A stretch of DNA of 55,888 nt from Dehalococcoidia bacterium (GCA_046294495.1 JBKBKV010000005.1:1-55888), one strand, 5' to 3'; shown: positions 37,398-47,671, counted from the stretch's first letter. Translations and numbers: made by a program. Notes: generated by a model not told the origin, from the letters alone.

Positions 37398-37508
37398 AGG
37401 GCAGGGGCTTGCACTGACCGCACAAGGCGTTATGATAGGGTGGGCCCGGGTGCCGTCAGGGAGTAGCGAAAGGTTTATGCCGAAAAAAGCAATATGGGAG
37501 GAATAGAC

Positions 37509-38675
37509 ATGGACTTTCGGTTTACCCCCAAAGAGGAGGCTTTTCGCAAGGAACTGCGGTCCTTCCTGAAGCAGGAACTGCCCCCCGACTGGCAAGGCGG
37601 GGGCCTAGAGGCCGATAGCGAGTCCGAGTGGCAGTTCACCCTGCAACTGCGTAAGAAACTGGCCCAGAAGGGATGGCTCACCATCGCCTGGCCCAAGGAA
37701 TACGGGGGGATGGGCGCCTCCCACACTACACAACTGGTCTACAACGAGGAGATGGCCTATCACCGCGTGCAGGGGGTAATAGATATCTGGGGCGTTACCA
37801 TGCTGGCCCCCATTCTCATGAAGTTCGGCACCGAGGAGCAGAAGCGCACCTACCTGCCCCCCATCGCACGGGCGGAGGTGCAATGGTGCCAGGGCTACTC
37901 CGAGCCAGGCTCCGGCTCCGACCTAGCATCTTTGCAGCTGCGCGCCGTGGAAGATGGGGACGACTTTGTCCTCAACGGCACTAAGATCTGGACCAGCAAC
38001 GCCCACCGCGCCGACCATATCTTCGTGCTGGCCCGCACCGACCCTAACGCCCCCAAACACCGGGGCATCTCCTTTATCTTGGTGGACATGCGCACAAAAG
38101 GTGTGCAAGTGCGCCCCATTATCAATATGGCCGGCCTGCACGGCTTCAACATGACCATATTTGACGATGTGCGGGTGCCCAAGCGCAACCTGGTGGGGGA
38201 AAAGAATATGGGATGGTATGTGGGGGCCGCCCTCCTAGACTTTGAGCGCTCGGGCATCGGCTACTACGCCGGTGGAAAGCGCACCCTGGAGGACCTGGTG
38301 GCAGTGGCCCGGGAGCGCCGCCTGACCCAGGATGCCCGTGTGCGCAATGCCCTGGCTGAACTGGCGGTGGAGATAGAGGCTGGACGCCTAATGGCCTATA
38401 ACATCGCCTGGATGCAAGGGAAGGGCCTCATCCCCAACCGGGAGGCCTCCTGCAACAAACTTTTCGGCTCCGAGTTGCAGCAGCGCCTGGCGCATACAGG
38501 CTTGGCCCTGCTAGGGCTTTACGGGCAGTTGGAGCCTGGGTCTAAGTGGGCGCTTCTGCGGGGTAGGCTGGAGCGGGCTTGGCTCACCAGTTTCTCCAGC
38601 ACCATCGCAGGCGGCACCTCGGAAATCCAACGGAATGTTATCGCTATGCGTGGGCTGGGCTTGCCCAGGGGGTAG
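37509..38675 (+). CDS. Acyl-CoA dehydrogenase
   Basis: QGYSEPGSGSDLASL, GTKIWTSNA and the C-terminal catalytic region GGTSEIQRNVIA. Confidence 0.85.
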   Translation: MDFRFTPKEEAFRKELRSFLKQELPPDWQGGGLEADSESEWQFTLQLRKKLAQKGWLTIAWPKEYGGMGASHTTQLVYNEEMAYHRVQGVIDIWGVTMLAPILMKFGTEEQKRTYLPPIARAEVQWCQGYSEPGSGSDLASLQLRAVEDGDDFVLNGTKIWTSNAHRADHIFVLARTDPNAPKHRGISFILVDMRTKGVQVRPIINMAGLHGFNMTIFDDVRVPKRNLVGEKNMGWYVGAALLDFERSGIGYYAGGKRTLEDLVAVARERRLTQDARVRNALAELAVEIEAGRLMAYNIAWMQGKGLIPNREASCNKLFGSELQQRLAHTGLALLGLYGQLEPGSKWALLRGRLERAWLTSFSSTIAGGTSEIQRNVIAMRGLGLPRG

Positions 38676-38685
38676 AGGAGGGCCT

Positions 38686-39825
38686 CTATCGCTTGAGGAT
38701 GTGCACTGTGCATACCCCCCCGGCCCCGGAGCACTGGGCCAGGCCCACCCGCGCCCCCCGCACCTGCCGGGGGCCAGCCTCCCACCGCAGTTGCATAACT
38801 AGTTCGTGGAGCATGCGCACCCCCGTAGCCCCGAATGGGTGGCCCATGGCCTGCAGGCCCCCGTCCGTGTTCACCGGGATGTCCCCGCCGATTTCTGTCC
38901 GCCCCTCCCGGGTGGCTATCCACCCCTCACCCCGCCTCACCAGGCCCAGATGCTCTATCTGCTCTATCTCCCCGATGGTGGCAGCGTCGTGCACCTGAAC
39001 CACATCCACATCCTCTGGCCCCAGCCCTGCCATTTCGTAGGCCTCCTGGGCGGCCACTGTGGTGAGGGAGGGGTTGTCTACCCTGGGGCCCTGATAAGGG
39101 GTGGTGCGGAGCACCGACGCCACCACTGGTATAGCCCGCTCTGGGTTACTGGTATAGCGGCTGACTGCCTCCTGGGCACAGAGCACCGCCGCCGATGCCC
39201 CCTCACTGGTGGGACAGCACTGGTAGAGGGTTAGAGGCTCGGCGATCATACGAGAGGTGAGCACCTCTTCCAAAGTGAAGACCTTCTGATACTGGGCGTA
39301 GGGGTTTAGGGTGGCGTTGCGGTGGGCCTTCACCGCCACCTGGGCGATGGCCTCCACAGGCGCTCCGAAGTCGTGCATATACCGACGCATGCGCAGGGCG
39401 TAGCCGGCCATCATATGGTCGGCCCCCAACAGGTGCTGGCGGCTGGCGGTGCCCGTTACACTCACCGGCCCCCTGGGAACCCGCTCCGCCCCGAAGGCAA
39501 GGGCAATGTCGTAAAGGCCGCTGGCTATCCCCCAGTAGGCCTGCCAGAATGCGGTAGAACTAGAGGCACAAGCATTCTCCACATTTACCACGGGAATGGT
39601 GGTGAGACCCAGGGCGCGGAGCACCACCTCCCCCATGGACATCCCCTCATAGTAGACCTGCCCGAAGTAGGCTATCTGGATGTCCCTAAACCTGACCCCT
39701 GCATCCTTCAGGGCCTCCAGGACGGCGGTGCGCGCCATATGGGGGAGGGTCTTATCCGGGAAACGCCCGAAGGGGTGCAGACCCACTCCCAGAATGGCTA
39801 CACCCCGCAACGGTGCCTTCACCAT
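38686..39825 (-). CDS. Thiolase-fold protein, SCP-x/lipid-transfer type
   Basis: VAILGVGLHPFGRF..., NACASSSTAFWQA (Cys region), C-terminal GHPFGATG and CSGAGG. AAGGAGG lies 5 nt before ATG 39825. Confidence 0.85.
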   Translation of the reverse strand: MVKAPLRGVAILGVGLHPFGRFPDKTLPHMARTAVLEALKDAGVRFRDIQIAYFGQVYYEGMSMGEVVLRALGLTTIPVVNVENACASSSTAFWQAYWGIASGLYDIALAFGAERVPRGPVSVTGTASRQHLLGADHMMAGYALRMRRYMHDFGAPVEAIAQVAVKAHRNATLNPYAQYQKVFTLEEVLTSRMIAEPLTLYQCCPTSEGASAAVLCAQEAVSRYTSNPERAIPVVASVLRTTPYQGPRVDNPSLTTVAAQEAYEMAGLGPEDVDVVQVHDAATIGEIEQIEHLGLVRRGEGWIATREGRTEIGGDIPVNTDGGLQAMGHPFGATGVRMLHELVMQLRWEAGPRQVRGARVGLAQCSGAGGVCTVHILKR

Positions 39826-39836
39826 ACCGACCTCCT

Positions 39837-40265
39837 TTATCCCTTTGCCCATTTGTAGACCATAATCTCCCGCCCCTCCTCGTCCTTACCCGCCGGGCGC
39901 AGGACAAGGCGCACAGGCATCCCTATGAACACCTCCCGAGGGTCGCAGTCCACCACTTCCGAAATGATGCGCACCCCCTCAGGGGTCTCCACCTCGGCCA
40001 GGATGTATGGCACCCTCCCCTCCCAGCGGGGGGGTGGGGCGTGGACAACAGTGTATGCGTAGACACTCCCTCGCCCGCTCAACTCCACAGGCTCAAGGTC
40101 TGGGGAGGTGCAGTTGACGCAGAAAAGGGCATCCCGCCCCAGTGTGCACACCCCGCACTCCCGACACCGGGTGCCCAGGAGCACCCCCCTGGTGCCATCC
40201 CCCTCCAGGCGCAGATGGGAGGGGAAAATGGGGACGCGCTGGTGCGTGGCGTTGCTGGTGCTCAT
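39837..40265 (-). CDS. DUF35 Zn-ribbon + OB-fold protein (thiolase partner)
   Basis: LLGTRCRECGVCTLGRDALFCVNC (rubredoxin-like ribbon), then an OB fold (GSVYAYTVVH...ILAEVETPEGVRII). Confidence 0.8.
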   Translation of the reverse strand: MSTSNATHQRVPIFPSHLRLEGDGTRGVLLGTRCRECGVCTLGRDALFCVNCTSPDLEPVELSGRGSVYAYTVVHAPPPRWEGRVPYILAEVETPEGVRIISEVVDCDPREVFIGMPVRLVLRPAGKDEEGREIMVYKWAKG

Positions 40266-40277
40266 CCCTCTCCTTTT

Positions 40278-41252
40278 CTACACCCGGTAGCCCTCCCGGA
40301 TGGTGGCACGCCCCTTGAGGGCCAGGAGGCGCCCCACCCCCACCCGTTTCTCCAGCATCTCCTGGTGAGAGGCCACACTGTATACCCACTTCTCCATATA
40401 AGCACGGATATCGCCCCGGCCACGGACGGCGCCGAAGACCTCACGGACATGTTCCCCGTCTATGGTGTAGTAGCCGGGGCACTCGCCAGGGTAGGCCCCA
40501 AAGGGAGCGTGCACCACCGCATCCACTACGAAGAAGGGGATGGTGGTGAGGCCCGGGTTGCGGCGAAACTCCTCCGTGTCAATAATCTCCTCAGCGGAAA
40601 GAATAACTTTGCGCGAGGCCAGAGCCGCCTCCCGATGGGCGATATCGGTGCCAAAGACCCGGGCGTTGCCGTAGATGTCGGCCTGGTGAACATGGATGAG
40701 GGCCACATCAGGGTTGAGGGCGGGGACGATAAGGGTGGGCTGGCCAGTGAAGGGGTCTCGCACCACCTTGGCCCCGGAATGCTGGAAGCCTGTGGTGCCC
40801 CCAAAGGAGCGGATAGGCAGGAAGGGGACGCCCATGGCCCCAGCCCGCAGGCGCGCGGTGAGCACCACATTGCTGTATTCAAACATCTCCACCCTGCCTT
40901 CTAGAACAGCCCTGGTTACGGCTGGGCCGGGGCCGAAGAAGCCCACGTCCACCCGGCGCACACACCCAGCAGCCACCAGGAGGGCCACATCCACATAGGT
41001 AAACTTGCCACAAACCCACAGCCCCTTCTTGCCCTGGCGCATCAGTTCACGCTCCAGGGCGGCTGGCCCCCGATGCAGGTATTCGCAGTCGTAGACCAGG
41101 TAGTCGCCATCCTCTACGAATCGGGCGATGGCCTCCCGTTCAGACATCAGTTTTGGCACCATGCCCCGGGCCTTGTGGGTGCGCACCCACTCCCGGAAGC
41201 CATCCGGGTCAACAGGTTTGATAACGCCTTTCCCTTCCGTCAGGACTTCCAT
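40278..41252 (-). CDS. CoA-transferase subunit A (glutaconate-CoA-transferase GctA-like)
   Basis: MSEREAIARFVEDGDYL..., GMVPFLPIRSFGGT-like block GAMGVPFLPIRSFGGT, ALIHVHQADIYGN. Confidence 0.8.
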   Translation of the reverse strand: MEVLTEGKGVIKPVDPDGFREWVRTHKARGMVPKLMSEREAIARFVEDGDYLVYDCEYLHRGPAALERELMRQGKKGLWVCGKFTYVDVALLVAAGCVRRVDVGFFGPGPAVTRAVLEGRVEMFEYSNVVLTARLRAGAMGVPFLPIRSFGGTTGFQHSGAKVVRDPFTGQPTLIVPALNPDVALIHVHQADIYGNARVFGTDIAHREAALASRKVILSAEEIIDTEEFRRNPGLTTIPFFVVDAVVHAPFGAYPGECPGYYTIDGEHVREVFGAVRGRGDIRAYMEKWVYSVASHQEMLEKRVGVGRLLALKGRATIREGYRV

Positions 41253-41256
41253 GCCA

Positions 41257-41589
41257 TCACCGCAGGATTGGGGGGTTCATGGCCACCCCGTTGTGGATAA
41301 AGAAACTGCGAACAAAGTTGGCCCGCTCCCGGCTCCCCTCCTGGCGCTCAAAGGCGTCTATCTGCTCTATATAGCGGCGACGGGCGCGGGTGCTCAGGAG
41401 GAAGCGGCTCCCCTCCCCCTGGGGACGCAGGCAGGCGTTGACCATGCTGTCGGGGTCTTGCCCCACCAGGGCACAGAAGCGCTCCAACACCTCCAGCGCC
41501 TCCTGAGGGAGGCTCTCCCCCCAGAAACGCTGGTAACTCTCCCGCCACACCTGCACTGAAGAGAACCTGTCTATAGGGTGCTCCAGCAT
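41257..41589 (-). CDS. Hypothetical protein (110 aa, no family recognised)
   Basis: Start at MLEHPIDRF, 8 nt after the upstream stop; ends 4 nt before the CoA-transferase A start. Its position inside the operon supports that it is coding. Confidence 0.4.
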   Translation of the reverse strand: MLEHPIDRFSSVQVWRESYQRFWGESLPQEALEVLERFCALVGQDPDSMVNACLRPQGEGSRFLLSTRARRRYIEQIDAFERQEGSRERANFVRSFFIHNGVAMNPPILR

Positions 41590-41597
41590 ACTGCTCT

Positions 41598-42398
41598 TCA
41601 CCCCTGGGGCAGTCCGAACATGCGGGCCAGGGCACGCAACTCCTGTTTCCGCCAGGGTATAGGGGGGCATTGCTGGATGAGGCCATCCCCCCTCAGACGC
41701 TCCACGACCCGGGGGTCGCGGCGGAAGGGGGTGGATGTGTTGCCCTCAAAGAAGGTCTCTTCAAAGGCCCCTAACGGGATTTGCCCGGCGCCCTCTGCGC
41801 TTTCGGCGGGGTAGCCCACCAGAAGTGCCTGGAGAGGCTCCCAGGTGTCGGGGACGCGCAGGACCCGGCGCGCCCCCTCTTCGTTAAAGGGGACAAGGCA
41901 CACCCCAAGACCTTCATCCACGGCGCACAGGAGGGCCTGCTCCATAGCCATGCCTGCATCGGGGTGGCCCCCCCGTCGCGGCCCCATCTCCCACAGGGGG
42001 CGGAGCACCTGGGGCAAGATTACCTCCGACACATACCTACTGCTCCAGCCATGAGTGGGGGGCAAGGCCCCTACATCCACAATGGCGCCCGAGGGCACTG
42101 TAGGCCAGGGCCTCTCTTCCACCGCCCGGCGCCCTGCATCGGTGTCGTAGAACCAGAATATATAGACAGGGGCAAGGTCAAACTCCACCGAGGCCATAGG
42201 GGTCTTGAGGGCGTCCCGCTCCTGAGGCGTCAGCCACTCCCTGTAAGTAACCACCGCCTTGGCGAAGGCCACATTCATAGCCCGGGAGGCAAGGCGGGCC
42301 GCCTCCAGCATCTTCTGAATCTTGGCCCGCTCCACGGGACGCCACGCCTGGAAGAAGCGGGTGGTGCGCAGGTTGCCCATTACCTGGAGGAAGTGCAC
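41598..42398 (-). CDS. Nitroreductase-superfamily flavoprotein (paralog B)
   Basis: N-terminus RTTRFF, mid-region ALPPTHGW, AMEQALLCAVDEGLG and the shared tail IPWRKQELRALARMFGLP. Clear paralog of 42409-43257. Confidence 0.7.
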   Translation of the reverse strand: MHFLQVMGNLRTTRFFQAWRPVERAKIQKMLEAARLASRAMNVAFAKAVVTYREWLTPQERDALKTPMASVEFDLAPVYIFWFYDTDAGRRAVEERPWPTVPSGAIVDVGALPPTHGWSSRYVSEVILPQVLRPLWEMGPRRGGHPDAGMAMEQALLCAVDEGLGVCLVPFNEEGARRVLRVPDTWEPLQALLVGYPAESAEGAGQIPLGAFEETFFEGNTSTPFRRDPRVVERLRGDGLIQQCPPIPWRKQELRALARMFGLPQG

Positions 42399-42408
42399 CT
42401 AAACACCT

Positions 42409-43257
42409 CTACATGGGAAGCCCAAACATCTTGGCCAAGGCGCGCAGTTCAGCCCTGCGCCAGGGCAGGGGAGCGGGGTCTTGAATCATCTTAGCGGATT
42501 TCAGTTCCTCTACAACTGCCTGCTCCCGTCGGAAGGGAATGCCGTAGCGCCCCTCAAAGAAGTCCTCCTCAAAGGGTTCCCGGGGGCGCTGGCCCCCTGC
42601 CTCTAGCGACTCGGCAGGGTAGCCCAGGAGCATAGGGCTGGCTGGTAGCCAGTGGTCGGGTATACCCAGAATGCGCCGGGCTGCCGGCGTGCTGACCCCG
42701 GTGAGCATAGCCCCCAGCCCCAGGGCAAAAGCGCACAGCAAAGCATGCGCCTGGGCCACGCCCAAGGCGGTATTGGCCAGGTTCAGCAGGCGCACTGGAT
42801 AGGATGGCCCCGGTTGCGGCCCCTCGGGCCTCCGTATCATCAGGTGCACCCGGTCTGGGTCGTTCAGAATAGCCTGATACACCCGAGGGATGACTACCTC
42901 GTCCACATAGCGGGGCGTCCACCCGTGGCTGGGAGGCAACGCCCCTACCTCTATCATCTCCTTCAGGTGGTGTCCATCGGTGGCCCTCGCCAGTGCGTCT
43001 AGGTCGGCGAAGAAGAAGAGGTAGACGGGAGCCATATCTAGTTGGGCAGTGGTGGTGGGGGTCTTCAGGGCCTCCAGGTCTTCCTGGGAAAGGCTGTCCC
43101 TGTAGACCACCACCAGGCGCAGGAAATGCACCCCCATAACCCGGGGTGCAAGCAAGACGACCTCCAATATGGTCTGGACCTTCTCCCGCTCCACAGGGCG
43201 CCAGGGCAGGAAAAAGCGAATGGAGCGCCTCCTTCCAACCACCTCTTTGAACTCCAC
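42409..43257 (-). CDS. Nitroreductase-superfamily flavoprotein (paralog A)
   Basis: A GTG start with AGGAGG 5 nt upstream gives (M)EFKEVVGRRRSIRFF, the classic nitroreductase N-terminal motif. It also has ALPPSHGW, AQAHALLCAFALGLG and the tail LPWRRAELRALAKMFGLP. Confidence 0.7.
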   Translation of the reverse strand: MEFKEVVGRRRSIRFFLPWRPVEREKVQTILEVVLLAPRVMGVHFLRLVVVYRDSLSQEDLEALKTPTTTAQLDMAPVYLFFFADLDALARATDGHHLKEMIEVGALPPSHGWTPRYVDEVVIPRVYQAILNDPDRVHLMIRRPEGPQPGPSYPVRLLNLANTALGVAQAHALLCAFALGLGAMLTGVSTPAARRILGIPDHWLPASPMLLGYPAESLEAGGQRPREPFEEDFFEGRYGIPFRREQAVVEELKSAKMIQDPAPLPWRRAELRALAKMFGLPM

Positions 43258-43271
43258 ATCCCCTCCTGCGG

Positions 43272-43493
43272 CTAGCCTTTGCCCTCTTTCAGGGCCAGCC
43301 AGGGCAAACGCACAAGATACCAGAGCACCCGCCAATGGAGGGAGAGGCGCACCAGGTGCAGCATCTCTCTAGGGGAGATAATGGTATCGGCTTGCCAGAT
43401 TCCCATGCTCCCTCTAAGCACAAGGGCGTTGCCCCTTGGGCACACTTCACTTATGGCTATGACAAACTCCCCTGCGCCACTCTCCACGCGCAT
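43272..43493 (-). CDS. Possible small ORF (73 aa), unknown function
   Basis: Fills the 186-nt gap between two operon genes. GGAG lies about 10 nt before the ATG, and its TAG stop sits just upstream of the next gene's RBS. No family recognised. Confidence 0.25.
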   Translation of the reverse strand: MRVESGAGEFVIAISEVCPRGNALVLRGSMGIWQADTIISPREMLHLVRLSLHWRVLWYLVRLPWLALKEGKG

Positions 43494-43521
43494 AGGTGCA
43501 CTCCGAAAGTGGTGTCCGATG

Positions 43522-44907
43522 CTATACCGCCACAGCGCCCCGAACCGCCTCCAGGGCCCGCTGGGCAGCGGGGCCGTGCCACAACTCCATATGGCGAGCC
43601 TGGGTCTCGGTGTAAGACTCGGGGCCGTAGAAGCGGTCGTAGAACTCCAGGTCAAGGTGGTGGGCCTGGAACCAGGCCGTGGTAACGATGGGGTCGTAGG
43701 CCACAGGGAAGCGCCCATAGGTCTCCCAGCAGTAGTTGCAGATGTCTTTGACGCATTGGACCTGGGCCTCGCTATACACCGGGACGCCTGAGGCGAACCC
43801 CTCTGCCCCCCTAACGGCTATCTGGGAGCAAGTGGGGGTGTAGATCCCACCCACCCCGAACTTCTTCTCCACAATGTGGTCCACTGCCTTGTCCATACTG
43901 CCGTAGTAGACAGGCAGGTGGGTCTCCAGGATACCGTCAAGGCCCACAGGGATAGGGGCCACACTGGGGACGCCCACCCCTGCACCACCCCGTGCCCGTT
44001 GGCCATACTTGGGGGTGATGAAGCGAAAGCCTAGCCCCTTGGCCAGGGGCGTCCCGCCCAGGAGCACCAGGGGGTTGGGAGTGGCGTGCACCCATCCGCC
44101 AAGGCCCATAGCCTGCACCGCCAGTTGCAGGTTCTGCTCCATAAAGCCCGCCTCAATAATGGAGACGATGCCCAGCAACGAGAGGGGCATAGTGAGTTTC
44201 TCCTTCAGAAGCCCCTCCTTCACCCAACGCTCGCAACCGGCGTAGCGCCCTCCCCCCTGGATGTCGTCCACCACGGCTATGCCCCCATCGGGCCACCCTA
44301 CCATTAGCAGAAGGGCGTTGATGCTCTCCTCCGTGGTATCCAGCACCGGCAGGAAGATAGTGGAGCCGGGGATGTCGGAGTCCCATAGATTGAAGGGGAG
44401 CATCACAGGGTAGCGGCGTGGATACTGGGGACGGCCATCAAAGAGTTTCACACGTGCAGCCCGGAAGTGGTGGAGCACCTTCTCCTGGTCCTCTGGCCCC
44501 TCAAACTCCAAGGTCTTGGTAGGCTGGATGTTCTCAAACTTGATAAAATAGGTCCCCTCGTCGTTCCAATAAATCAGGCGCGCCTCATGGGAGTTGCAGG
44601 GGCTGGCAAAGGTAAGCCCCAGCCAGGTAAGGATTGTATTCCCCCCGGCCTCCCGCTCTTTATCATCGCGGAAGGGAAGGTCTGCCAGGACGCGCCCAGT
44701 TACCCCGGTGGCCGCCTCCACCAGCAGGGCCTCCTCTAACTCGTCCAGGGGCATAGGGGCAAAGCGGGACTTATACCTTGTCGGACCGCCGGGGATCTCC
44801 GCCCCCATGGCGAAACGCCGGGAGCGGCGCTTGAAGATAGTGTCAAAAAGGGGCCAAGCACTCTTTAGCCCCGGGTGCTCTAGCAGGGGGTGTGTCCCGC
44901 TGGTCAT
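43522..44907 (-). CDS. Large (461 aa) nitroreductase-superfamily-like protein with long internal insertion
   Basis: N-terminus FKRRSRRF...LDELEEALLVEAATGVTG, and a distal block IIEAGFMEQNLQLAVQAMGLGGWVHA (typical FMN-site region). Its start overlaps the CoA-transferase B stop by 4 nt. Confidence 0.5.
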   Translation of the reverse strand: MTSGTHPLLEHPGLKSAWPLFDTIFKRRSRRFAMGAEIPGGPTRYKSRFAPMPLDELEEALLVEAATGVTGRVLADLPFRDDKEREAGGNTILTWLGLTFASPCNSHEARLIYWNDEGTYFIKFENIQPTKTLEFEGPEDQEKVLHHFRAARVKLFDGRPQYPRRYPVMLPFNLWDSDIPGSTIFLPVLDTTEESINALLLMVGWPDGGIAVVDDIQGGGRYAGCERWVKEGLLKEKLTMPLSLLGIVSIIEAGFMEQNLQLAVQAMGLGGWVHATPNPLVLLGGTPLAKGLGFRFITPKYGQRARGGAGVGVPSVAPIPVGLDGILETHLPVYYGSMDKAVDHIVEKKFGVGGIYTPTCSQIAVRGAEGFASGVPVYSEAQVQCVKDICNYCWETYGRFPVAYDPIVTTAWFQAHHLDLEFYDRFYGPESYTETQARHMELWHGPAAQRALEAVRGAVAV

Positions 44908-45776
44908 GCCTCCTCCTCCGTTACTTTCTCTCCCTGGGCAAAGGCGTAGGTTCCGTCGGGGCGGCGCTCAATCACCCTCCCCTCACCGCTAAAACGGCCA
45001 TCCACATCCAAACGGGTGCGCAGGATATCCAGTTCCTCTTCTGTAGGTGGAGGTATCACCTCTATCCGTTCCGCCAGCAAGGGGCGGAAACTCATCTCCT
45101 CCAGCACCTGCTCCACACTCACGAAAGAAGAGACGGCTATCAGGCGAAGGTGATGGCTCCTCTCCTCAAAGTCAAAGATGGCCCAGGGGGTAACCACACG
45201 CCATGGGCCTGTCCCCCTGGGCAGGCCGGCCCTCTCCCTTGCGCCCGGGGAGCCGTCCAGATAGCCAGGGGAGCTGATGAAGTCAACCTTCGGCACGAAC
45301 TTGCGGCGCTGCTGATCGGTGGCGATGATTGTGCGCCAGCACAGGGAGGCGATGGAGTCCGCCCCGCCGGGGCCACCGAAGCGCCTCCCCTCCCGCGGAT
45401 AAGCGCCCAGCCAGGTGGAGTTGATATTGCCGTAGGGGTCTACCTGGAGGGTGTTGATAATACCGCAGTCTATGTAACCCAACTGGGCATAGTCGCCGGC
45501 GATGTTCATGGTCGCCCACTGCACGGCGCGGTAACCGGAGCGAGCGGTCATCATACTGCCAATGGGGTCAAAAGGGAGGGCCGGTTCTGGGGCCACCACC
45601 CCATCCTCGGTGATGTAGAAGGCGTTGGGGGCGTGAAGCGCCTTGGCGATGAGCAGGGCGTAGAGAGGACCGCCCCCACCCGCCACCCAGTAACTCCTGC
45701 CGTCCTCCACCAGACGGGAGAGGATGCACACCTGCTGTTCCCGTTCGGTGAACCACTGGGCCGGTGTGCCGCGCAT
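44904..45776 (-). CDS. CoA-transferase subunit B (glutaconate-CoA-transferase GctB-like)
   Basis: ERE-QVCILSRLVEDG...WVAGGGGPLYALLIAKA...LGYIDCGIINTLQVDPYGNINST matches the family I CoA-transferase beta-subunit layout. Confidence 0.8.
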   Translation of the reverse strand: MRGTPAQWFTEREQQVCILSRLVEDGRSYWVAGGGGPLYALLIAKALHAPNAFYITEDGVVAPEPALPFDPIGSMMTARSGYRAVQWATMNIAGDYAQLGYIDCGIINTLQVDPYGNINSTWLGAYPREGRRFGGPGGADSIASLCWRTIIATDQQRRKFVPKVDFISSPGYLDGSPGARERAGLPRGTGPWRVVTPWAIFDFEERSHHLRLIAVSSFVSVEQVLEEMSFRPLLAERIEVIPPPTEEELDILRTRLDVDGRFSGEGRVIERRPDGTYAFAQGEKVTEEEA

Positions 45777-45947
45777 CGCCCCCTCCTTGTAGCCCCTCGG
45801 CTGTGGGTATAATAGCCATTGTTCCCTCCATCGTCAAGGGTGCAAGGAAAGTCTTTAGGGAATAGGTTTGCAAATCGTTGTCTTTTGCCCTCTATACGGT
45901 CTATCATGCGCTGTGAATAAAAAGGGGGTTTTGTCAGGAGGCGTGCA

Positions 45948-47168
45948 ATGGCCCATCCCCTGCGAGACCGCTACTGCATCGTTGGTGTGGGAGAGACGGA
46001 GTATTCCCAGCACTCTGGGTGCACCACTCGCGCCATGGCCGTGGAGGCAGTCAAGAAAGCCATAGAGGACGCCGGCCTTACCCCCAAAGATGTGGATGGC
46101 CTGCTCAGTTACCACATGGGGGATTCCACCCCTTCAACAGCCGTGGCGTCGGACCTGGGCATCCGTCCCAACTTCTTTATGGATGTAAGCGGGGGTGGCT
46201 CCAGCACCGAGGCCCTTATCGGCCTGGCTATGGGGGCCATGCAGGTGGGTATGTGCCATACCGTGGCTATCTACCGCTCTATGAACGGCTACACCCAGGT
46301 GCGCATCGGCGGCACCGGGGCAAGGGCTTCCACCCCCGTAAGTGGGAGTGAACTGCTGGTGCGCCCCTATGGGCTGATGAGCCCTGTCCAGCGCTTCGCC
46401 TTCGCCTTCACCCGCCACATGATGGAATACGGCACCACCAACGAGCAGTTGGCTATGGTGAAGGTGGTGCACAGCCGACACGCCAGCGCCAACCCTAAAG
46501 CCTTCAAGAAGGAGCCAGTTACCGTAGAGGATGTGCTGAACTCCCGGTGGATCGTGAAGCCGGTGGCTCACCTGCTGGACTGTTGCCTGGAGACCGACAA
46601 CGCCACCTGCATCATCGTTACCTCGGCAGAGCGGGCGCGCCACCTGCGCCAGCGCCCCATTTACATTATGGCGGTGCAGGGGCGTGGATCCCGCACATTC
46701 CCAGACAACCCCTGGTCCGAGGCCCCTATCACCCTTATCGGGGGAAACTACATCGCCCCTCGCATCTTTGAGATGGCTGGCGTTGGCCCTGAGGATATAG
46801 ACATCACCGGGTGCTACGACGCCTTCACCTTTACGGTGGTGCTTCAGTTTGAGGCCTACGGCTTTTGCAAAGTAGGCGAAGGGGGGCATTATGTGAGTAG
46901 CGGCATTACTGCCCTGGGGGGCAAGCGCCCCAACAATACTAGCGGGGGCCATCTATGCGAGGGTTACACCCATGGGATGAATATGGTCATAGAGAATGTG
47001 CGCCAACTACGAGGCCAGGCCGACGACTACTGCCCCGGCTGGCGTGAGGGAAAACACACCTACCAGTATGGGCCGGGCGGATGCCGCCAGGCCAGGGATG
47101 TGGAGATCGCTATGAACATGGGGTGGGGCACGCCTGGCTACGGCTCCGCCCTTATCCTGCGGAGGTAG
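45948..47168 (+). CDS. Thiolase-fold protein, SCP-x/lipid-transfer type (second copy)
   Basis: YCIVGVGETEYS..., thiolase-like N and C domains, NTSGGHLCEGYTHGMN. Confidence 0.85.
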   Translation: MAHPLRDRYCIVGVGETEYSQHSGCTTRAMAVEAVKKAIEDAGLTPKDVDGLLSYHMGDSTPSTAVASDLGIRPNFFMDVSGGGSSTEALIGLAMGAMQVGMCHTVAIYRSMNGYTQVRIGGTGARASTPVSGSELLVRPYGLMSPVQRFAFAFTRHMMEYGTTNEQLAMVKVVHSRHASANPKAFKKEPVTVEDVLNSRWIVKPVAHLLDCCLETDNATCIIVTSAERARHLRQRPIYIMAVQGRGSRTFPDNPWSEAPITLIGGNYIAPRIFEMAGVGPEDIDITGCYDAFTFTVVLQFEAYGFCKVGEGGHYVSSGITALGGKRPNNTSGGHLCEGYTHGMNMVIENVRQLRGQADDYCPGWREGKHTYQYGPGGCRQARDVEIAMNMGWGTPGYGSALILRR

Positions 47169-47170
47169 CC

Positions 47171-47671
47171 GTGCCAACCTACGAGTATCGTGGCCTGCTT
47201 TTGAGCCTCCCAGAGTTTGACCAGGAGCATACAGGTTACTTTGAGGCAGCCCGCTGCCACCAGTTGGTGGTGAAGCAGTGCCTAGACTGCCGCCTACTGC
47301 GGTGGGAGCCAGGGCCTGCCTGCCCCTTCTGCACATCATTGCGCTGGGAGTGGGCACCCGTCAGCGGCAAAGGGGAAATTTACAGTTACCAGATCGTCTA
47401 CCACACCGTGCTCCCGGGCTTTCGGGACTGGGTGCCCTACCCCATCGTGCTGGTGGAACTGGATGAACAGAAGGGGATGCCCACCCCCGGCTACGGCCTG
47501 CGCATCACCGCCAATCTGGTGGACGAAAACTTCCGCCCCGAGCGAGAGGAGCGTGTGGCCATCGGCGCACGGGTGGAGGCCGTGTTTATGGACTTGCCCA
47601 ATGGCCTCACTCTCCCCCAGTTCAAACTGTCTGCGGAGCAGCCCCGGGGGAGGGTGTGGCGGCACGGGTGA
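47171..47671 (+). CDS. DUF35 Zn-ribbon + OB-fold protein (second copy)
   Basis: GTG start 2 nt after the thiolase stop. LVVKQCLDCRLLRWEPGPACPFC ribbon, then GEIYSYQIVYH...IVLVELDEQ OB fold. Confidence 0.8.
   Translation: MPTYEYRGLLLSLPEFDQEHTGYFEAARCHQLVVKQCLDCRLLRWEPGPACPFCTSLRWEWAPVSGKGEIYSYQIVYHTVLPGFRDWVPYPIVLVELDEQKGMPTPGYGLRITANLVDENFRPEREERVAIGARVEAVFMDLPNGLTLPQFKLSAEQPRGRVWRHG

Follow-up and report, generated by a model that had tools for sequence, protein, structure and literature searches.

The window analysed here, a 55,888-nt stretch of DNA from a Dehalococcoidia bacterium (GCA_046294495.1, JBKBKV010000005.1:1-55888), carries nine tightly spaced genes on its minus strand at positions 38686-45776. 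These read as a single operon, with intergenic gaps of -4 to 28 nt (Table 1). They encode both subunits of a GctAB-like coenzyme A (CoA)-transferase, a DUF35 protein and a thiolase, two nitroreductase-family proteins termed NTR1 and NTR2, and three proteins of unnamed families termed X461, s73 and u110. Together they represent a gene set that recurs in other lineages and probably encodes an undescribed step of CoA-ester metabolism.

The open reading frame (ORF) list, Pfam and NCBIfam place every gene listed in an earlier note on this DNA at the coordinates given there or a few codons away. The start of X461 overlaps the end of the CoA-transferase B gene by 4 nt (ATGA), as the same note had described. 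The GTG start of NTR1 is preceded by AGGAGGGG and the ATG start of the thiolase gene by AAGGAGG. No internal terminators above chance were found in the operon, and a candidate promoter lies ahead of its first gene within a divergent intergenic region of 171 bp.

Table 1. Genes and other features of the operon and its flanks in the window. Pfam cut-offs are 23 bits for PF01144 and 23.5 bits for PF00881.
Feature	Position	Strand	Basis
GctB-like CoA-transferase beta, 290 aa	44904-45776	-	PF01144, 32.8 bits
X461, 461 aa, unnamed family	43522-44907	-	nitroreductase fold by predicted structure; no Pfam/NCBIfam family
s73, 73 aa, unnamed family, X461 partner	43272-43493	-	conserved ORF
NTR1, 282 aa, GTG start	42409-43257	-	PF00881, 33.9 bits
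NTR2, 266 aa	41598-42398	-	PF00881, 41.1 bits
u110, 110 aa, unnamed helical family, NTR partner	41257-41589	-	conservation beside NTR; no Pfam family
GctA-like CoA-transferase alpha, 324 aa	40278-41252	-	PF01144, 80.9 bits
DUF35 protein, Zn ribbon + OB fold, 142 aa	39837-40265	-	PF01796, 81.4 bits
DUF35-associated thiolase, 379 aa	38686-39825	-	Thiolase_N + Thiolase_C_1
Candidate sigma-70-like promoter TTGACG-17-TATTAT, upstream of first operon gene	45809..45837	-	10/12 consensus match only
Acyl-CoA dehydrogenase, conserved flank	37494..38675	+	three ACAD domains
Ltp2-like Cys-less thiolase-fold protein + DUF35, conserved flank	45948..47671	+	Ltp2 6ok1 closest solved

Proteins of the operon

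NTR1 and NTR2 end in a common tail, P-x-P-W-R-x-x-E-x-R-A-L-x-x-M-F-G-L-P, in which W, R, E and L are invariant across 21 sequences of the family. The shared tail had been remarked on before; it is real, and is the hallmark of the whole NTR family rather than of this pair. The tailed family has about 1000 homologs and is rare among relatives of the host, occurring in 4 of 401 genomes sampled from its phylum. Three further motifs are conserved, which we take from structures of E. coli NfsB to be FMN-binding (flavin mononucleotide). Presumably, as in NfsB, each FMN site combines the Arg motifs of one subunit with the S..N motif of its partner. Single-copy members of the family keep all three. 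NTR1 keeps the Arg motifs G-x-RRSIR and GGQRPR and has lost LASRAxN (S to P, N to G/E), while NTR2 keeps LASRAxN, has a degenerate G-x-RRSIR and lacks the first Arg of GGQRPR.

All NTR1 orthologs also share an insertion of ~20 aa. In a maximum-likelihood tree, NTR1 and NTR2 form separate clades (support 100/100 and 100/99, respectively) with matching internal order, hence the duplication is old and the pair is co-evolving. Members of the superfamily typically form homodimers with two symmetrical FMN sites. In NTR enzymes the FMN sits where the two subunits of the dimer meet (PMC10404671). The complementary loss of motifs therefore implies a predicted NTR1:NTR2 heterodimer with a single intact site, which would hold one FMN per pair. 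The suggestion in the earlier note of a heteromeric FMN enzyme gains support from this complementary degeneration, from the mirrored clade topologies, and from fusions of NTR2 to u110.

These fusions are seen in many 389-aa proteins, including those of L004 and L102 among the loci surveyed below. u110 has no Pfam or NCBIfam family, even at E <= 1. Its AlphaFold2 (AF2) model is helical, with a predicted local distance difference test score (pLDDT) of 91.7, and weakly resembles the N-terminal core-binding domain of tyrosine recombinases (XerA, Z 7.0 at most). A recombinase fragment was considered and rejected: the protein lacks a catalytic domain and is fused to an enzyme, and its match, that of a helical bundle, reaches Z 7 at most. 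The integrase likeness of the model would reflect fold reuse at most.

The match of NTR2 to AlbA has an E of 0.069, and both NTR1 and NTR2 weakly match C-terminal models of FbiB in NCBIfam. Dependence on F420 was rejected for this organism as its genome, a metagenome-assembled genome (MAG) of 1.74 Mb and 96% complete, contains no CofD. Separately, in five metagenome loci a CofD-like gene (TIGR01819, 240 bits vs a cut-off of 257) directly precedes a cluster of ligase, thiolase, NTR, u110 and X461-like genes (L128, 5817-6809; L140, L148, L156, L189), with PaaK/F390-synthetase-like ligases downstream. There may be a link to F420 in the organisms of these five loci.

X461 has no Pfam or NCBIfam match, even at E <= 1. 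Its more than 2310 homologs, found in many phyla, are all annotated as hypothetical. A profile search returned only Frp (E 0.02) and Foldseek found no match in the PDB at E <= 1e-3. Structural alignment of the AF2 model (pLDDT 79) was more informative, as the best 50 VIA-align matches are all nitroreductase-superfamily chains. The first of these is 8cqs_A (Z 12.2 over 168 aa), followed by BmdC, ThcOx and McbC, and AlbA matches at Z 8.1. On the predicted structure, X461 is a double-sized protein with a nitroreductase fold, which agrees with its earlier description as nitroreductase-like.

The neighbouring 73-aa ORF, previously listed as possible, is a real gene. Homologs of s73 adjoin X461, upstream or downstream, in more than 20 loci of several phyla, and their alignment has nine invariant columns. 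s73 matches no Pfam or NCBIfam family, even at E <= 1. A complex prediction for X461 and s73 scored 0.00 and is uninformative either way. Two further X461 homologs (36% identity; L008 and L009), from genome G007 of the same order as the host, have in-frame stops (1 TAA; 2 TGA).

X461 and s73 also belong to a four-gene unit with FixC and FixX, found in eight loci, of which five have no NTR or CoA-transferase genes. The unit encodes a FixC-like FAD protein of the electron-transfer flavoprotein:quinone oxidoreductase (ETF-QO) type, a FixX-like ferredoxin, s73 and X461 (L036, 7921-11317; also L038, L045, L048, L049, L050, L053 and L084). Its hosts are Binataceae and deltaproteobacterial MAGs. In five loci of the module described below, FixC-like and FixX-like genes lie between u110 and s73-X461.

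Both CoA-transferase subunits exceed the PF01144 cut-off. Their closest solved chains are GctA for alpha (1poi_A, E 7e-34) and GctB for beta (1poi_B, E 1e-34), and scores with the NCBIfam AtoD and PcaI models are far below cut-off. The catalytic Glu of beta, which in this family sits in an E-x-G motif and forms the thioester with CoA, lies in 'ITEDG', aligned to 'IVESG' of GctB, and TEDG is kept in 18 of 18 beta orthologs. Alpha orthologs are 60-74% identical across phyla.

A GctA-like alpha paralog with an in-frame TGA was found in genome G000 (contig C25 9749-10594, minus strand; L205) and in G001 and G002 (L198 and L199). The TGA occupies the same codon in all three ('VLDNT*GVILSMLQAGAMGVPF') and the frame is conserved on both sides. 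A 6-bp hairpin, GCTCCA-GGC-TGGAGC, lies ~25 nt downstream. A fourth paralog, in G003 (L197), has one TGA inside the match, whose position was not read. The in-frame TGA makes this CoA-transferase-like protein a candidate for selenocysteine incorporation.

The closest solved chains of the thiolase are the SCP2-thiolase 6hsj, BbsB (7pxp) and an archaeal thiolase (6esq). Its nucleophilic Cys ('NACASSST') and His ('GHPFGATG') are kept. The neighbouring DUF35 protein has four Cys arranged as CxxC...CxxC, leaving the Zn ribbon intact. The features of a DUF35-associated thiolase, namely this Cys, this His and an adjacent Zn-ribbon and OB-fold protein, are thereby all present. The DUF35 protein scores below the cut-off of the BbsA model (3.5e-13) and the thiolase falls below that of BbsB, therefore the pair is not a BbsAB ortholog.

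Distribution of the module

The gene neighbourhood was surveyed around relatives of X461 (80 genome loci) and of NTR (80 metagenome loci), with X461 or NTR proteins as the queries. Scoring by tblastn with the window proteins distinguished six types of arrangement (Table 2). The order CoA-transferase B, three flavoprotein genes, CoA-transferase A, whose conservation the earlier note had proposed as a check, is found within the same nine-gene order in three loci. L004 and L020 are variants of this type, with a ligase or without transferase genes.

Table 2. Types of gene arrangement among the surveyed loci. CoATA and CoATB, CoA-transferase A and B genes.
Type	Arrangement	Loci
A	exact nine-gene order, 50-74% amino-acid identity	L022 (SAR202 MAG), L114, L116
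B	A/B adjacent, with DUF35, thiolase, NTR1, NTR2, u110; without X461	L103, L110, L111, L115
C	AMP-CoA ligase in place of transferase	L102, L113, L117
D	single NTR, u110, CoATA, CoATB, X461-like	L126, L127, L135, L137, L138, L143, L172, L186
E	ligase, thiolase, NTR, u110, X461-like	L128, L132, L140, L147, L148, L156, L159, L185 and others
F	NTR, u110, FixC, FixX, s73, X461, CoATA, CoATB	L036, L053, L084, L155, L162

Across these types, u110 lies directly downstream of an NTR gene in 56 of 66 sufficiently long loci. In at least three phyla, NTR and u110 are found together with CoA-transferase A/B or with a CoA ligase. Where at least 5 kb is available on both sides (n=15), CoA-activation genes are present in 11 loci, a thiolase in eight and an X461-like gene in seven; the four with none of these mostly have an enoyl-CoA hydratase. 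Recurrent extra neighbours are SDR genes (12 loci), enoyl-CoA hydratase (six), ADC family genes (six) and PaaK-like ligases. The conserved unit is NTR with u110, a CoA-activating enzyme and a thiolase, often with an X461-like protein. It is carried by Chloroflexota/SAR202, deltaproteobacterial, Binataceae and Acidimicrobiales MAGs from ocean, soil and groundwater. This pattern supports the proposal of an integral role for the flavoproteins in a CoA-ester pathway, as NTR and u110 stay with CoA-transferase or ligase, thiolase, and enoyl-CoA hydratase or SDR genes.

The separation of the two CoA-transferase genes, pointed out in the earlier note, is real. They share one operon, five genes apart, and so depart from the adjacency typical of the family. 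It is not the essence of the system, however, as most other loci of the module have A and B side by side (L036, L053, L126, L137 and others) or an AMP-forming CoA ligase in their place (L004, L102, L128, L147 and others). Hence the split is a derived rearrangement peculiar to a SAR202-like lineage (type A only), without mechanistic meaning. In one deltaproteobacterial MAG (L084, 10001-13186), X461, CoATA and CoATB are each matched in two to three tblastn pieces; these breaks are frameshifts, due either to assembly indels or to pseudogenes.

In the host, a 7.25-kb island (38676-45927) carries the operon and takes the place of other genes found in sister species. Homology to the sister genomes ends at the stop of the flanking acyl-CoA dehydrogenase (ACAD) gene (38675) and ~20 nt ahead of 45948. 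Two genomes of the same genus, G001 and G002, show ~83% DNA identity in GatB and in the second thiolase-like/DUF35 pair, which flanks the operon. Of these, G001 alone also retains ACAD and fumarase at the locus, and the 3' end of its ACAD is 83% identical up to the island border. In the sister species, genes for a luciferase-like monooxygenase and for two alpha/beta hydrolases fill this slot (L018 3681-6728 in G002; L019 3680-6716 in G001); in this genus it is a variable catabolic locus. Orthologs of X461 and NTR2 are absent from these two genomes and from one genome of the same family, and all three contain only 36%-identical paralogs of CoA-transferase alpha.

The flanking genes had been listed alongside the operon in the earlier note. 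They are present, but lie outside the unit. Inclusion of ACAD and the second pair was rejected as the pair is kept (83%) in G001 and G002, which lack the operon, and ACAD is kept in G001. The 'thiolase-like' protein of the pair (45948-47168) also has no nucleophilic Cys, with SGGGSS at that position. Its best solved match is the Ltp2 aldolase (6ok1, E 2e-67), and a DUF35 gene follows. Ltp2 is a steroid side-chain aldolase. By its sequence, the flanking protein is probably a retro-aldolase acting with the DUF35 protein that follows.

Proposed pathway and alternatives

The reading we favour, at a probability of about 0.5, is that the operon is one arrangement of a widespread uncharacterised module that metabolises a carboxylic acid as its CoA ester. 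The GctAB-type CoA-transferase would activate the acid, a role taken by an AMP-forming CoA ligase in other lineages. NTR1 and NTR2 would pair as an obligate heterodimer that has only one intact FMN site and is joined by u110, and this complex would be the special oxidoreductase of the pathway. Its most likely reaction would be the insertion or removal of a C=C bond adjacent to the thioester or to a carbonyl, so that it would stand in for an acyl-CoA dehydrogenase or enoyl reductase in a route resembling beta-oxidation. C-C desaturases with the NTR fold have a precedent in TyzC/OxzB (PMC10404671). X461 and s73 would form a second flavoprotein unit, most likely passing electrons on, a role proposed because of their association with the ETF-QO-like FixC/FixX in other bacteria. 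The DUF35-thiolase pair would then cleave the resulting 3-oxoacyl-CoA. Hydratase and dehydrogenase steps would be supplied from elsewhere in the host genome; in other loci such genes lie nearby.

No characterised pathway matching the module was found in Pfam, NCBIfam, PDB or literature searches, in line with the earlier note, which could not map the cluster to a described pathway. Substrate guesses from nearby transporters (SBP_bac_5, SDF, DctP, MFS) were discarded as inconsistent between loci.

A narrower version assigns a specific reaction. NTR1/NTR2/u110 could be a new class of FMN-dependent acyl-CoA alpha,beta-dehydrogenase, or of enoyl-CoA/enone reductase, built on the nitroreductase fold from an asymmetric heterodimer with one active site and a recruited integrase-like helical subunit, and replacing the ACAD step. 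X461/s73 would then be a hitherto unrecognised electron-transfer flavoprotein pair leading to FixCX and the quinone pool. This assignment is tentative, and we regard it as rather doubtful in its full form.

Several points weigh against the proposed pathway. The operon has no hydratase or 3-hydroxyacyl-CoA dehydrogenase, so that a full turn of beta-oxidation is not encoded locally. The thiolase has 'HDAA' where SCP2-type thiolases carry the acid/base Cys of 'HDCF'. The assignment of the NTR motifs to FMN and to one or other subunit relies on structures of NfsB, which makes the single-site heterodimer a prediction from motifs. X461 and s73 are missing from the otherwise complete modules L102, L103, L110, L111 and L115, and are therefore not essential to the core chemistry. 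Lastly, most loci of the survey are short metagenome contigs of related lineages, meaning that the counts are not independent.

The most probable alternative, though an unlikely one, casts the NTR proteins (and perhaps X461) as accessory reductases of flavin or quinone that do not act on the CoA ester, with linkage reflecting co-regulation only. They could, for example, provide reduced flavin for luciferase-like monooxygenases or detoxify by-products. Many NTR-family members, as seen among the PDB neighbours, are indeed NAD(P)H:flavin or nitro/quinone reductases. Luciferase-like monooxygenase genes occur near the module in five loci, and a gene of this kind occupies the slot in the sister species. 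This amounts to only ~5 of ~90 loci, however, and the window operon has no such gene. NTR-u110 instead stays with CoA-activation and thiolase genes across at least six gene orders, and complementary motif loss together with a dedicated, fused partner would be unusual for a generic flavin reductase.

A biosynthetic module is less probable again. Here the thiolase/DUF35 pair would condense acyl-CoAs, and the NTR-fold proteins would be O2-dependent desaturases, like TyzC, OxzB and AlbA, in the making of a lipid or small metabolite. In lipid biosynthesis, acyl-activating enzymes do have NTR-fold oxidases beside them that act as desaturases of acylated substrates (PMC10404671). Archaeal DUF35/thiolase pairs also condense, with 6esq among the closest solved chains, and PaaK-like ligases and an MFS exporter lie near some type E loci. 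The partners expected of such a system (ThiF, NRPS [non-ribosomal peptide synthetase], PKS [polyketide synthase] or acyltransferase) are absent, and Gct-type CoA-transferases with enoyl-CoA hydratase, SDR and ADC-family genes as neighbours typify catabolism. The genome of the host measures 1.7 Mb, and the island replaces hydrolase and monooxygenase genes.

It is more improbable still that the A/B proteins are a CoA-ester hydrolase or decarboxylase, like IpdAB or AibAB, for which the flavoproteins prepare the substrate. IpdAB (6con, 6co6) and AibAB (5mzw) are among the solved relatives, and many loci carry a CoA ligase besides, or instead of, the A/B pair. GctAB is nonetheless far closer, with beta matching GctB at 1e-34 and the IpdAB/AibAB-type relatives at 2e-10 and 2e-7 (IpdB, E 2e-7 to 9e-6). 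AibB, a decarboxylase and a solved member of the beta subunit's family, has Asn at the position of the catalytic Glu, which is invariant here. CoA-transferase A/B and the AMP ligase are for the most part mutually substituting, as two routes of activation would be. Genes for steroid catabolism, including ring degradation, which would point to an IpdAB-type hydrolase, are absent from the annotated neighbours in the window.

Chance juxtaposition, with three flavoprotein genes inserted into the CoA-transferase operon of one lineage without functional link, is very improbable: the whole operon is missing from two same-genus genomes and one same-family genome and A and B are adjacent in most other lineages, but the lineage-specific part is the entire nine-gene island rather than the NTR genes, NTR-u110 accompanies CoA-transferase A/B or CoA ligase in at least three phyla, and no NTR-free operon occurs among the loci examined, though these were retrieved with X461 or NTR queries and L023 has X461, s73 and CoA-transferase A/B without an NTR match. 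Synteny across lineages likewise rules out the NTR genes as a private insertion into an intact CoA-transferase operon.

Three families of the operon (X461, s73 and u110) are unnamed, and the tailed NTR family has a generic label only. The groups that carry the module are credited with the breakdown of recalcitrant organic matter. Should the NTR heterodimer act on CoA esters, the nitroreductase superfamily would gain a reaction type, and a gap that these organisms show in their annotated beta-oxidation-like pathways would be explained.

Comparison with known systems

The CoA-transferase most closely resembles GctAB of Acidaminococcus fermentans (1POI), which likewise has two subunits, is the best solved match for both, and shares the catalytic Glu of beta. 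It differs in gene context. The A and B genes here are 3.65 kb apart with five genes between them, and are accompanied by flavoproteins and a thiolase rather than 2-hydroxyglutaryl-CoA dehydratase genes.

In AtoDA-AtoB and PcaIJ-PcaF, a family I CoA-transferase of two subunits is paired with a thiolase, which cleaves the 3-oxoacyl-CoA produced by activation. The window operon likewise contains both components. Unlike in these systems, its thiolase is of the DUF35-associated SCP2/BbsB type, and NTR1, NTR2, u110, X461 and s73 have no counterparts.

DUF35-thiolase pairs are known from the benzoylsuccinyl-CoA thiolase BbsAB (7PXP) and the archaeal thiolase/HMGCS/DUF35 complex (6ESQ), and IpfDE of ibuprofen-CoA degradation is a further pair. 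As in the operon, a Zn-ribbon/OB gene lies beside an SCP2-type thiolase gene with its Cys, and a CoA-activating enzyme and a redox enzyme accompany such pairs. In the module these redox partners have the nitroreductase fold, whereas elsewhere they are ACAD, SDR or dioxygenase enzymes.

For the proposed electron transfer, the relevant comparison is with FixCX/ETF-QO, which are associated with acyl-CoA redox enzymes; fixABCX adjoins the cai operon. FixC and FixX genes form a unit with s73-X461 in eight genome loci, a link of gene context. Unlike these systems, the window operon has no FixCX, and no FixAB/ETF was noticed in the FixC-FixX-s73-X461 units, where none was searched for.

Among flavoproteins, the nearest systems are flavin-dependent oxidases and desaturases of the nitroreductase superfamily, including TyzC/OxzB (PMC10404671), the cyclodipeptide oxidase AlbAB (8UC3) and the azoline oxidases BmdC, ThcOx and McbC. 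They share the fold and are the top structural neighbours of X461 (Z 8-11), and the bonds that they desaturate, C-C or C-N, adjoin an acyl or amide group. AlbA requires a small second subunit; the small candidate partners here are u110 for NTR and s73 for X461. Beyond the fold there is no detectable sequence relationship, and the partners are CoA-ester enzymes instead of ThiF, NRPS or cyclodipeptide synthases. The superfamilies represented in the operon are known, whereas the way they are combined, the predicted asymmetric heterodimer of NTR proteins and the families of small partners have not been described.

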